From an uncultured Melioribacteraceae bacterium (GTDB taxonomy: Bacteria > Bacteroidota > Ignavibacteria > Ignavibacteriales > Melioribacteraceae): a stretch of 26,236 bases of DNA. Shown here one piece after another: positions 20,264 to 24,100 of the stretch. Within the stretch, counting starts at the first letter, position 1, and each line of letters begins with the position of its first letter. The notes under the pieces are model-generated. The model saw only the letters and a program-made list of their open reading frames with translations. It did no database searches and was not told the DNA's origin. Location of the stretch: assembly GCA_964601095.1 (NCBI GenBank), contig CAZRMG010000002.1:3202-29437 (forward strand), written 5' to 3'. The translations under genes were made by a program, and so were the position numbers.

Positions 20264-22333
20264 ATGGAATCACTTAAAAATTTTTTCTATCCGAAATCTA
20301 TTTGCATCGCCGGCGCAATCGCAAAAGAAAAAAGTATCGGACGCGAAATGCTCGCATCAATTAAAAATTACGGCTACACAGGTAAGGTTTTTCCCGTAAA
20401 CAATAAGCTTGATGAAACACTCGGTTATAAAGTTTATCATTACATCGAAGAGATTGAAGAACAAATTGATCTTGGAATAATCATTATCCCCAAGCAATTT
20501 GCGGAGGCAACTGTTGATGCTTTCCTCGCCAAGAATGTTAAATCTATAATCTTAATTTCCGCGGGATTCGAGGAAGTCGGTAAAGAGGGCGAGGAACTTC
20601 AAAACAAAATTGTACATAAAATAAATTCTCACGGCGCACGCCTTGTTGGTCCAAACTGCATGGGCTTAATAAACACGCTTGACGAAATAAAACTCAATGC
20701 GACTTTTGTTGCTGAAAAACCGGAGACGGGTTCAACCGGATTTTTATCGCAAAGCGGTGCACTCGGTGCGGCTGTATTAAATTCGCTGCGGGAAACTGAA
20801 ATTAAGTTCGCACATTTTATTAGTGTCGGAAACAAAGCCGATGTTTTTGAAAACGATATTTTGAATTTTTGGAACAACGACGACAATATAAAAACAATGA
20901 CTTTTTACTTAGAAAGTTTTGTTGAAGGTAAAAATTTTATAAAACCTTTTATTAAGGGAGAGATAAAAAAACCGGCTGTTGTTTTAAAATCGGGAAAAAC
21001 AAAAAGCGGAATGAAAGCGGCATCTTCACACACCGGGGCTTTAAGCGGTAAAGATAAAGTTACAGATTCTCTTCTCAGACAATTCGGAATTATACGCGCG
21101 GAAAATTTAAACGAGCTTTTTAACACGGCAAAAGGATTTGAACATTTCCCGCTTCCAAAAGGAAACAGAGTTGCTGTAATTACAAACGCCGGGGGCCCCG
21201 CAATTTTATGCGTTGATAAAATTGATAACGAAGGATTGGTTCTCGCGGATTTTTCCGAAGACACAAAATCAAAACTTCGAAGCGTTGTTCATCCCGAAGG
21301 AAGCATTAACAACCCTGTTGATTTATTGCCGGGCGGCACTGCGGAGGTTTATAGGAATTCTATTGAAATTGTTGCGGCCGATAAAAATGTTGATGCCTTG
21401 ATTTCAATTTTTGTTGAGCCGATAATGGTTCCTGCTTTTGAGGTGATTGAAGAAATTAATTCAATCAACTGCGACAAGCCGGTTTTACAAATTGTTATGC
21501 CGCTGCCGGAGTTTTGGAGCAAATACATAAATGAATCGAAGCGAAAAATTCCTCTTTTTAAAAATCCCGAAGACCCGGCGGAAGTTATTGCGAACATGCT
21601 TTTCTATGTGCAAACAAAAGATCGCTTAAACCGAAATAAGAACATTTATTCGGAATTGCTGAATATTTTTCCGGCTTCAAAAAACAATATTTCAAATAAA
21701 TTTTTATCACAAGGGCAGGTTCATAAACTTTGTGAACAATACAACCTTCCAACAATAAAAAGCAGAATTGTAAAAGTAGTTGATCCTACAAAAATCGAAA
21801 ATGACTTTTACCCGATTGTTTTAAAAGGAATAAATGAAAAAGTAATTCACAAATCCGAAATGAGTGCGGTAAAATTAAACATCAAAAATCCGGATGAATT
21901 GTTCTCTGCCGCAGCCGAAATAAAAAATAGTTTTGCCAATGCCGGTTATGAAGTTGAAGAATTTCTCGTTCAAAAATTTATTGAAACAAAACACGAATTA
22001 ATTATAGGCGGCTTCCGAGATCCGTCTTTTGGTCCGGTAATTTTATTCGGTTCGGGCGGTAAATATGTTGAAGTGTACGATGATATTGCAATAAAATCTT
22101 GTTACTTATGCGATGACGATATTGAAGATATGATTGATAGAACCAAGATTGGAAAAATATTACGCGGTGTTCGCGGCGAAGAATCTTGCAACATTCACGA
22201 ACTAAAAAGAATAATTAATTCATGCGCGAGAATGATGCTTGAAAACGAAAACATTTCCGAGTTTGATATAAACCCGCTTATTGTTGATCGGAATAATAAA
22301 TATTTTGCAGTTGACGTAAGAATTAAAAGTTAG
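20264..22333 (+). CDS. ADP-forming acyl-CoA synthetase (acetate--CoA ligase family), fused alpha-beta
   Basis: 689 aa. CoA-binding domain, GPNCMG, SQSGALG, SVGNKADV, phospho-His motif ASSHTGAL, TNAGGP, NPVDL, and a C-terminal ATP-grasp (ELIIGGFRDPSFGP, DINPL). No GNAT domain. Confidence 0.9.
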   Translation: MESLKNFFYPKSICIAGAIAKEKSIGREMLASIKNYGYTGKVFPVNNKLDETLGYKVYHYIEEIEEQIDLGIIIIPKQFAEATVDAFLAKNVKSIILISAGFEEVGKEGEELQNKIVHKINSHGARLVGPNCMGLINTLDEIKLNATFVAEKPETGSTGFLSQSGALGAAVLNSLRETEIKFAHFISVGNKADVFENDILNFWNNDDNIKTMTFYLESFVEGKNFIKPFIKGEIKKPAVVLKSGKTKSGMKAASSHTGALSGKDKVTDSLLRQFGIIRAENLNELFNTAKGFEHFPLPKGNRVAVITNAGGPAILCVDKIDNEGLVLADFSEDTKSKLRSVVHPEGSINNPVDLLPGGTAEVYRNSIEIVAADKNVDALISIFVEPIMVPAFEVIEEINSINCDKPVLQIVMPLPEFWSKYINESKRKIPLFKNPEDPAEVIANMLFYVQTKDRLNRNKNIYSELLNIFPASKNNISNKFLSQGQVHKLCEQYNLPTIKSRIVKVVDPTKIENDFYPIVLKGINEKVIHKSEMSAVKLNIKNPDELFSAAAEIKNSFANAGYEVEEFLVQKFIETKHELIIGGFRDPSFGPVILFGSGGKYVEVYDDIAIKSCYLCDDDIEDMIDRTKIGKILRGVRGEESCNIHELKRIINSCARMMLENENISEFDINPLIVDRNNKYFAVDVRIKS

Positions 22334-22352
22334 ATAATCCATATTCGGGTGT

Positions 22353-22380
22353 TTGAAAAACACAACAATTCTATTATTTT
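22353..22380 (+). promoter_or_regulatory. Possible sigma70 promoter for the ABC-F leader
   Basis: TTGAAA (22353-22358), 16 nt, TATTTT (22375-22380). The match is imperfect and the region is AT-rich. Confidence 0.3.
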
Positions 22381-22414
22381 TATTCGTATAAATAAAGAGT
22401 AAAGGAACGCGAAC

Positions 22415-22429
22415 TTGAAAAGAGCATAA
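22415..22429 (+). CDS. Putative leader peptide uORF, MKRA
   Basis: TTG AAA AGA GCA TAA, with SD AAAGGA (22401-22406) 8 nt upstream; it lies in the 5' arm of the leader hairpin. Confidence 0.55.
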   Translation: MKRA

Positions 22430-22519
22430 CGGATTAAGATAATCTGCATAAACACTTTCGATTAATTTAATGATTCGTGCAGATAATCTTTATCCATTCT
22501 TTTCGGTTCGTGGCCATCG

Positions 22520-22545
22520 GCCGCGGCAAGCGGCTTTTTTATTTT
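22520..22545 (+). terminator. Intrinsic terminator inside the ABC-F 5' leader
   Basis: GCCGC-GGCAA-GCGGC followed by TTTTTTATTTT, ending 46 nt upstream of the ABC-F ATG. Confidence 0.75.
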
Positions 22546-22591
22546 AAAACGTTAATGCCGCATTTGTCAAACACAAATCGGAAAAGTAATT

Positions 22592-24100
22592 ATGAAAAAA
22601 CATTTTTTGAAATTCGCCAACGTTTCATTCGGATACGAAGATTCTCCAACCGATATATTCCGAGATGTATCTTTTCAATTATCAACCGGTTGGACGGGAT
22701 TAATCGGTGCGAACGGTTCCGGCAAAACCACGCTGCTCAAACTTGCATGCGGATTGTTGGATTGCACAAGCGGAAAAATAGAATCACCGGATAATTTTTA
22801 TTATAATGAACAGCGGACGGATGCTGCCCCTGAACAGTTTCATAATTTTTTAAGCAGCTTCGATAAACCGGCTTTTAAATTAATTGACGAACTAAGAATC
22901 GAGCAAGATTGGGTTACTCGTTGGGACACGCTTTCTCACGGTGAGAGAAAGCGCGTTCAAATTGCATGCGCACTGTGGAATCAACCGGATTTACTGGCGA
23001 TTGACGAGCCAACAAATCATCTCGATATGATCGCAAAAAATATGATTGTAGATTCGTTGAAATCATTCAAAGGGATCGGGTTGATTGTAAGTCACGACAG
23101 AGATTTGATGGAAAATCTTTGCGAACAATTTTTATTTATCGATTTCGGAAAAGTTGAATACAGGCGCGGACGATTATCCGACACAACAGCACAGCGTCAA
23201 CTTGAAAACGAATCCGCGTTGAAGCAATTCGAAATGAAACAAATTGAAATCTCAAAACTTGAGAATGAATATAAACGACGCAGCGAGATTGTTGAGCAAT
23301 CAAAAAAGAAAATATCGAAGCGGAATATCGACCGAAAAGACAGAGATGCAAAAGGCAAAATCGATTTGGCAAGATTGACGGGAAAGGATGCAGGCGCCGG
23401 GAGACTAAAAACAATAATGTCTACAAGATTGGAAAACGCTAAAACAGAATTGCAGAGTATCGATATCAAACGCGGTTATAAAACCGGGATAATGCTTTCA
23501 TCGTCGGTCTCGCCCCGCAATTATCTTTTAAATCTCGAATCCGGTTCACTACAATTATCCGCCGCTAAAAAATTGGTTTATAACAACCTCGTTATTCTTC
23601 CGCAGGATAAAATCGCTCTCACAGGTGAAAATGGTTCCGGCAAAAGCTCTCTCATCAAACATATATTAACCCAACTAAATGCCGATTCGGAAAATATTAC
23701 TTACATACCGCAGGAAATATCCATCGACGAAACAAAAGAGCTGATGAACGAGATACACAACCTGCCGAACGAACAACTTGGGAAATTATTGATAATCGTC
23801 AGCCGACTCGGTTCCGATGCAAAACGAATTCTTGAAACAGATTTACCGAGTCCCGGCGAAACACGAAAGCTGCTGCTTGGTTTGGGCATCACCAAAAATC
23901 CGCACATAATAATAATGGATGAACCGACAAATCACATGGATATTGTTTCGATTGAATGTCTCGAATATGCGCTAAAAAATGTTTCGTGTGCCATGCTGCT
24001 AATAAGTCACGATAAACGATTTTTGTCCCAACTGACGGCTATTGAATGGAAAATTAATTCTATCTCAAATGAAAACGAATTACTTGTAAAATATCATTAG
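22592..24100 (+). CDS. ABC-F family ribosome-associated ATPase (antibiotic-resistance ABC-F-like architecture)
   Basis: 502 aa. Two NBDs (GANGSGKTT/LSHGE/DEPTNHLD/SHD and GENGSGKSS/PSPGE/DEPTNHMD/SHD), no TM domain, and a basic helical linker of about 115 aa. Confidence 0.92.
   Translation: MKKHFLKFANVSFGYEDSPTDIFRDVSFQLSTGWTGLIGANGSGKTTLLKLACGLLDCTSGKIESPDNFYYNEQRTDAAPEQFHNFLSSFDKPAFKLIDELRIEQDWVTRWDTLSHGERKRVQIACALWNQPDLLAIDEPTNHLDMIAKNMIVDSLKSFKGIGLIVSHDRDLMENLCEQFLFIDFGKVEYRRGRLSDTTAQRQLENESALKQFEMKQIEISKLENEYKRRSEIVEQSKKKISKRNIDRKDRDAKGKIDLARLTGKDAGAGRLKTIMSTRLENAKTELQSIDIKRGYKTGIMLSSSVSPRNYLLNLESGSLQLSAAKKLVYNNLVILPQDKIALTGENGSGKSSLIKHILTQLNADSENITYIPQEISIDETKELMNEIHNLPNEQLGKLLIIVSRLGSDAKRILETDLPSPGETRKLLLGLGITKNPHIIIMDEPTNHMDIVSIECLEYALKNVSCAMLLISHDKRFLSQLTAIEWKINSISNENELLVKYH

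Follow-up and report, generated by a model that had tools for sequence, protein, structure and literature searches.

A predicted vmlR-type ribosome-mediated transcription attenuator upstream of an ABC-F gene in an uncultured Melioribacteraceae bacterium

The macrolide-sensing leaders ermCL and msrDL, which have comparatively long upstream open reading frames (uORFs), depend on a particular nascent peptide within the exit tunnel, and details of the Listeria lmo0919/rli53 leader were reportedly set out by Dar et al. in 2016. Drug-dependent stalling on the leader ORF refolds the mRNA in both msrDL-msrD and ermCL-ermC (PMC10314930, PMC10219788). The leader of Bacillus subtilis vmlR carries the uORF MIN inside an anti-antiterminator (SL-1), together with an antiterminator and a terminator (SL-3), and is induced by initiation-trapped ribosomes; a separate pause hairpin tops its antiterminator, and an extra hairpin masks the vmlR Shine-Dalgarno (SD) site (PMC9226507). 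Short uORFs are typical of the leaders of PLSA-type ARE ABC-F genes (e.g., MR[I/M] for CplR, MK[L/Q] for VmlR2, and MAGN for LsaA), and vgaL is among the uORF-regulated ARE-ABCFs (PMC10201436). The cplR leader of Clostridioides joins a very short uORF (MRI) to a terminator/antiterminator switch whose terminator stem holds the main SD site (PMC10201436). In Streptomyces, the are5scL1 uORF, MLV, comprises three codons with a TTG start, at which LSAP drugs stall the ribosome; the are5sc leader has terminator and antiterminator conformations, and its second, overlapping predicted uORF is untranslated by toeprinting (PMC12421871).

The DNA considered here, referred to below as the window, is the whole stretch of 26,236 nucleotides that was analyzed. 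Within it, a leader of approximately 150 nt precedes a gene encoding an ABC-F ATPase, and we assign a probability of roughly 0.8 to the reading that this leader is a vmlR-type ribosome-mediated transcription attenuator, composed of an anti-antiterminator, an antiterminator, and a terminator. The features of the locus are as follows.

22352..22382, + strand: probable promoter of the Bacteroidota type (TTTG at 22352-55, a 19-nt spacer, and TATTTTTA at 22375-82)
22401..22406, + strand: SD site of the uORF, AAAGGA (from the sequence)
22415..22429, + strand: uORF, TTG AAA AGA GCA TAA, M-K-R-A-stop (from the sequence)
22408..22512, + strand: anti-antiterminator hairpin (in the minimum-energy fold; covariation)
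22408-15 and 22417-24 with 22497-22512: outer helix P1 of the anti-antiterminator (RNAfold)
22431-49 with 22477-95: inner helix P2 of the anti-antiterminator, with two mismatches and a loop at 22450-76
22508..22526, + strand: antiterminator, 22508-15 (UCGUGGCC) paired with 22519-26 (GGCCGCGG)
22519..22545, + strand: predicted intrinsic terminator, 22519-24 paired with 22530-35, loop GGCAA, U run at 22535-40, then AUUUU
22530..22561, + strand: post-terminator hairpin X, in which GCGGC (22530-34) can pair with GCCGC (22557-61)
22592..24100, + strand: ABC-F ATPase gene of the ribosome-protection type, 502 amino acids (family models, fold matches)

The likeness to B. subtilis vmlR lies in a very short uORF with its own SD site placed within the anti-antiterminator, an overlapping antiterminator, an intrinsic terminator, and an ARE-type ABC-F gene as cargo. 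Unlike vmlR, to which it has no sequence similarity, the leader has a TTG-started uORF, an antiterminator that is a small local hairpin, and the extra hairpin X, and no masking of an SD site is predicted. With Clostridioides cplR it shares the very short uORF, the terminator/antiterminator switch, and a PLSA-type ABC-F cargo, but its terminator stem does not hold the main SD site; the hosts of cplR and vgaL are Firmicutes, whereas the host of this leader belongs to the Ignavibacteriota. The Streptomyces are5sc leader resembles it in the short TTG-started uORF and the two alternative conformations, and differs in being a different RNA, in serving subfamily ARE5, and in its high-GC actinobacterial context. 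Refolding of the mRNA by drug-dependent stalling, as in the msrD and ermC leaders, is proposed likewise here; unlike ermCL and msrDL, the ORF has only 3-4 codons and its peptide varies, and no +x+ motif is kept among the uORF peptides of the leaders compared. The leader shows three marks of the attenuator class: a short uORF that has a ribosome-binding site to itself, a uORF hairpin whose 3' strand overlaps the antiterminator, and, in silico, a mutual exclusion of antiterminator and terminator that is decided by ribosome position.

The elements named in the original prediction, made from the letters of the window, could all be located: the SD site, the uORF, the terminator GCCGC-GGCAA-GCGGC-T6 (22520-22540), and the pairings, of which CGCGAAC (22408-14) pairs with GTTCGTG (22506-12) with one G-U and GAAAAGA (22417-23) pairs with TCTTTTC (22498-504). 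The hairpin of about 105 nt with an inner stem was likewise found, that stem being P2, and the ORF downstream does encode an ABC-F protein. Nucleotides 22508-12 of the antiterminator are common to P1, and 22519-24 are common to the terminator. The terminator stem is short, with six pairs in the window, four of them conserved G-C pairs, and a consensus terminator scan matches 22519-22535 plus the T run.

The minimum-energy fold of 22385-22560 (176 nt; RNAfold) consists of the 105-nt hairpin and the terminator at -51 kcal/mol, compared with -34.1 +/- 3.9 kcal/mol for 200 dinucleotide shuffles of the same segment (z = -4.35; none of the 200 as good). When 22400-22432 is forced to remain unpaired, the antiterminator 22508-15 x 22519-26 forms and the terminator is gone, which is the exchange that had been predicted for a constrained versus a free uORF region. 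As isolated hairpins in the window, the anti-antiterminator, the 8-bp antiterminator, and the terminator have energies of -34.6, -12.6, and -11.3 kcal/mol, respectively. In the window fold the A-rich 5' end also pairs at long range with the U run; only about 7 of 17 leaders are predicted to form this helix, and we regard it as an effect of composition.

Orthologous ABC-F genes (50-76% protein identity) at 17 other distinct loci are preceded by the same architecture; these loci were gathered from genome searches, a metagenome pattern scan, and look-ups of homologous proteins. The metagenome scan used the 17-mer of the inner hairpin and returned 23 stretches, of which 6 were true leaders, 3 of these being new. 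All 18 leaders contain an SD site, a uORF of 3-4 codons, a long hairpin that buries the uORF, a CGUGG/CCGCG antiterminator core, a CCGC/GCGG terminator core, and a U run, and in all of them the segments follow one order: CGUGG, short loop, CCGCGG, loop, GCGG, U run. Isolated hairpin energies across the leaders range from -27 to -48 kcal/mol for P1 plus P2, from -6.6 to -16 kcal/mol for the antiterminator, and from -8 to -11 kcal/mol for the terminator, and the antiterminator is the more stable of the latter two in 15/17.

Unconstrained, 16 of 17 leaders fold into the hairpin plus the terminator. As a mimic of the ribosome, a 31-nt footprint was slid along each of the 17. The terminator is retained in 4/17 minimum-energy folds when the start codon occupies the P site, and in a single leader (1/17) when the P site falls on codons 2-3. 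Whenever the footprint covers the uORF the terminator is lost in 13-16 of the 17 leaders, and with the footprint at least 24 nt downstream it is retained in 82-100% of them. In L003, L098, and L121 the switch requires a P site at codon 2 or later, and L129 keeps its terminator at every footprint position in the minimum-energy fold. The logic originally claimed (a uORF within an anti-antiterminator, an overlapping antiterminator, and a terminator) is in this respect borne out, in that a footprint on the uORF switches the fold and one at least 24 nt downstream does not.

In the OFF state of the proposed mechanism, transcription would begin about 25 nt 5' of the 4-codon uORF, and any ribosome loaded there would clear the uORF within approximately a second. 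The newly made 3' strand (22497-22512) would then pair with the uORF region (22408-22424), and the closed 105-nt anti-antiterminator would lock away UCGUG (22508-12). GGCCGC (22519-24) would be left free to pair with GCGGCU (22530-35), and the resulting 6-bp hairpin with its U run would end transcription about 50 nt before the ABC-F start. In the ON state, a ribosome halted at the start codon or at one of those after it would cover the entire 5' strand of the outer helix with its footprint of about 30 nt; UCGUGGCC could then pair with GGCCGCGG once the latter had emerged, so that the antiterminator would be made before the terminator, the terminator would be blocked, and the ABC-F gene would be transcribed. 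Because the uORF has only 3-4 codons and its peptide is not conserved, the signal is likely to be a drug able to hold the ribosome during initiation or immediately afterwards: a peptidyl transferase center (PTC) inhibitor such as a lincosamide, a streptogramin A, or a pleuromutilin, or else a nucleoside antibiotic. Both the actual termination and the inducer are what we infer.

Transcription would start near 22387-22392. About 15 of 17 leaders have a TAnnTTT(G/A) box 35-45 nt 5' of the point where the uORF starts, with TTTG about 20 nt 5' of that box, and in the window 22353-22380 is also flagged by a scan for sigma-70-type promoters. The boxes at 22352-55 and 22375-82 resemble the consensus of the Bacteroidota -7/-33 promoter described for Bacteroides. 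Since the spacing between the promoter boxes and the uORF is constant in about 15/17 leaders, the leader and the ABC-F gene look like a self-contained transcription unit. The opposite strand carries a strong sigma-70-type match directed antisense into the leader (minus strand, 22570-22541; TTGACA, 18 nt, TAAAAT; 11/12), which is probably a chance match because its -35 part is not conserved in three relatives compared by eye (L002, L003, and similar).

GGAG or AGGA begins 11-13 nt ahead of the uORF start in 17/17 leaders. Sites of this kind are really used in the window's genome: SD-like 4-mers peak at -10 before its long ORFs (131, versus about 9 expected), and about 23% of its ORFs carry one. 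The uORF has 3-4 codons in 18/18 distinct leaders, starting with TTG in 17 and with ATG in 1, and encodes MKR in 7 leaders, MKRA in 4, MKTL in 2, and MKRT, MKS, MRK, MRN, and MKL in 1 each. In the 17 leaders analyzed, 20 of 21 stop triplets located within 18 nt past the start fall in frame 0, with the codons varying. These patterns suggest that the uORF is translated.

The same RNA could serve a signal other than antibiotics. The stress could be general to translation (slow initiation or early elongation, starvation, low energy), with the ABC-F protein as a housekeeping rescue factor under feedback; given a peptide that is not conserved, any arrest in the first codons would flip the switch. 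Impaired translation and (p)ppGpp likewise affect the induction of vmlR (PMC9226507), and ARE ABC-Fs tune their own attenuators (PMC12421871). In the same direction, the protein scores under the cut-off of an NCBIfam resistance family: its best model, NF000355 (ribosomal-protection-like ABC-F), gives 306.5 bits, and the curated cut-off is 380. NF000355 is nevertheless the best family by about 100 bits, with the Msr and Lsa models at about 200 bits and Uup, YbiT-like, and EttA at 150-160 bits.

Comparison with known structures points away from a housekeeping role. A sequence search of the PDB yields end-to-end alignment only for LsaA and VmlR; MsrE, VgaL, and VgaA align from about residue 111 on, and housekeeping ABC-Fs align over shorter parts. 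In the AlphaFold model (pLDDT 85.6), linker helices span residues 195-240 and 251-289. The lowest Foldseek E-values are those of VmlR2 (TM 0.76), LsaA (0.79/0.80), VgaL, and PoxtA, with VmlR (0.75) sixth; by TM-score LsaA, VmlR2, and VmlR lead, and ribosome-bound EttA, YbiT, and Uup reach 0.61-0.68. Pfam gives two ABC_tran matches, the first at residues 24-142, with the second P-loop region near residue 340, and no ABC_tran_Xtn match in the 502 amino acids. The protein has two ABC domains and a long helical linker and lacks a transmembrane part, as ARE ABC-Fs do. On these sequence and model comparisons it is nearer to known resistance factors than to housekeeping ABC-Fs, and its function would be in resistance.

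The distribution of the gene bears on the same point: most relatives should carry a housekeeping factor, whereas this gene is present in about 7% of the family's genomes. At E <= 1e-100 it is found in 15 of 401 genomes of the class, and it was not found in the genome of the sister species (G001), which is 99% complete. There (L151, 3570-3913, compared with window 22333-24100), the ADP-forming acetyl-CoA synthetase gene (acs) is kept at 92% identity and is followed by an HlyD-family gene, without the leader or the ABC-F gene; several other relatives have the order acs, leader, ABC-F, glycogen synthase. The region after acs is therefore a variable spot, and the presence of the ABC-F gene varies among close relatives. 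Patchy presence of this kind is treated as a mark of resistance ABC-Fs, and further ones have been predicted on that basis, including in Bacteroidetes groups (Murina et al., PMC6723617). The window's genome (G000) encodes two more ABC-F paralogues (contigs C108 and C88; 23-25% identity to the 502-amino-acid protein), which are presumably the housekeeping ABC-Fs, and neither has this leader. We hold general translation stress to be an unlikely signal.

A covariance model was built from the leader alignment and used for genome scans. In the window's genome it makes one leader match, at 139 bits; the second-best match (contig C30, 25.7 bits) is an ordinary terminator. Of the family's 151 genomes, 10 contain the leader, each in one copy and always directly before the ABC-F gene; a single copy per genome speaks against a repeat or mobile element. 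With the same model, no leader is found in other families of the class (138 genomes) or near 92 other ABC-F loci, including relatives at 41-44% identity. A protein-alignment scan of contigs with generic Walker-B patterns found only distant ABC-Fs (23-38% identity), none with the leader. The possibility that the hairpin terminates the upstream acetyl-CoA synthetase gene was also considered; elsewhere the leader follows other genes. The neighbors on its 5' side include acetyl-CoA synthetase, DUF493, an NmrA-like gene, and amidophosphoribosyltransferase genes transcribed divergently, so the hairpin does not serve as the end of the preceding gene.

A different conserved leader precedes ABC-F genes of about 43% identity in another family of the class (L093, L095, L096, and L097). 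It contains an SD site and a 5-codon uORF, ATG AAG AAG CAT AAA TAA (MKKHK; MRKHN in L093), with small hairpins 3' of the uORF and a TCCCATA/TATGGGA pairing that overlaps the ribosome-binding site. This leader may be a second-type, translational attenuator.

The pairings of the long hairpin are supported by covariation. In the MAFFT alignment (A2), which was not fitted to the structure, 84.7% of the cells of the OFF structure pair, compared with 40-53% when the partners are slid, and 18 of the 39 pairs of the long hairpin have changed on both sides, versus 8.3 +/- 2.1 in shuffled alignments (0/500 as high). In the model-fitted alignment (A4), 87.5% are paired and 23/39 pairs have changed on both sides, versus 8.8 +/- 1.9. 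The outer helix of the window carries a triple compensatory change, with AAC x GUU where most relatives have GGG x CCC. Covariation with the P1 partner is also seen at the U of CGUGG, a position common to the outer helix and the antiterminator (A-U in 12 leaders, G-C in 2, G-U in 3). The original prediction had called for conservation of the uORF and the pairings in orthologous leaders, and both are kept, with compensatory changes.

For the two smaller helices the picture is a different one. The antiterminator core is invariant, with a flanking pair that switches between UA and CG and a U-G that becomes C-G in 2 leaders, and the terminator core CCGC/GCGG is present in 18/18. Since these cores are invariant, covariation speaks neither for nor against them; overlapping alternative helices would be expected to constrain the sequence in just this way, but the constancy does not prove them.

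Ten leaders (the window, L002, L003, L086, L087, L098, L112, L113, L121, and L127), whose ABC-F proteins are 65-100% identical where identity was measured, have the same sequence, GCAGATAATCTTTATCC, in the 3' arm of the inner hairpin; the block is 17 nt long and lies in the 22477-22504 region of the window. Its sequence is more conserved than pairing alone requires. This arm is followed by a U-rich, TTCTTT-like stretch (U-rich at 22497-22504), where RNA polymerase might, speculatively, pause in the way that it does at the NusG-dependent site of vmlR.

An identical 17-nt block, and an invariant TTTTAAA farther downstream for which no reason is clear, are what one might expect if the long hairpin were stabilized or opened by a small ligand or a protein, independently of translation, the tiny ORF being incidental. 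Against this, 18/18 leaders keep the spacing of the SD site, a start codon, and an in-frame stop while the codons change, which a pure RNA element would have no need to do, and the hairpin is a simple helix, with neither a conserved multi-helix junction nor an internal loop resembling a pocket. No Rfam family matches either: in 21800-23000, Rfam 15 gives only chance-level scores (at most 18 bits, E of at least 0.37), and the leader therefore belongs to no curated RNA family. We consider a translation-independent switch very unlikely.

Given a ribosome-mediated attenuator, the regulated step is likely to be transcription and not translation, because the predicted accessibility of the ABC-F ribosome-binding site shows no systematic difference between the free and the uORF-masked folds (16 leaders). 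Control that is mainly translational, with that site masked as in ermC and the hairpin and U run not terminating, deserves next to no credence even though vmlR and cplR combine both layers (PMC9226507, PMC10201436) and the U run of L131 and L133, which have short spacing, can pair with the purine-rich site before the start, since besides this unchanged accessibility the start lies 19-52 nt past the U run, outside the switching helices.

Downstream of the terminator stem, hairpin X spans ATTTTAAA (22541-48), within which TTTTAAA (22542-48) is invariant in all leaders. In most relatives (L002, L003, L086, L087, and others) hairpin X is GCGGUUU x AAACCGC and uses the 3' arm of the terminator and the first U's; 13-15 of 17 leaders retain both of its C-G pairs, and it co-occurs with the antiterminator in folds of the full-length leader. 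We also considered TTTTTTATTTTAAA as a general terminator tail of this genome, but only 2 of 119 stringent terminators carry it; the screen that yielded these 119 required at least six perfect pairs, and the window's stem is the shortest it admits. A bolder reading, which we put forward tentatively and consider unlikely, is that of an undescribed antibiotic-inducible ribosome-protection ABC-F clade in diderm environmental Ignavibacteriota, controlled by a relay of four helices, where three are usual, in which X and TTTTAAA act as an extra checkpoint. If this were true, the checkpoint could, for example, lock the read-through state or set mRNA stability or translation.

The Melioribacteraceae and the Ignavibacteria belong to the FCB group, and the Ignavibacteria are diderm, mostly uncultured organisms of digesters, sediments, and groundwater. 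To our knowledge, resistance ABC-Fs are little documented in diderm bacteria, and a literature search for ABC-F leaders of Ignavibacteria or Bacteroidota turned up no publication. The leader is a new RNA family, seen only in one family of the Ignavibacteria. The locus had been expected to be notable for its host, and it is so with respect to the phylum, the RNA family, and the ABC-F clade, which are new; the principle is one already known from Firmicutes and Actinobacteria (PMC9226507, PMC10201436, PMC12421871).

Inducible ribosome protection by ABC-F proteins has so far been worked out in Firmicutes and Actinobacteria. The element described here, of about 150 nt and validated comparatively, could be used in reporter assays and in annotating such genes in metagenomes, and a covariance model is available for an RNA family that is absent from Rfam. 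The presence of the leader argues that an uncharacterized clade of ABC-F proteins in the Ignavibacteria is a real antibiotic-response gene, and it suggests that antibiotics that trap ribosomes at the start codon are ecologically relevant in digesters, sediments, and groundwater.
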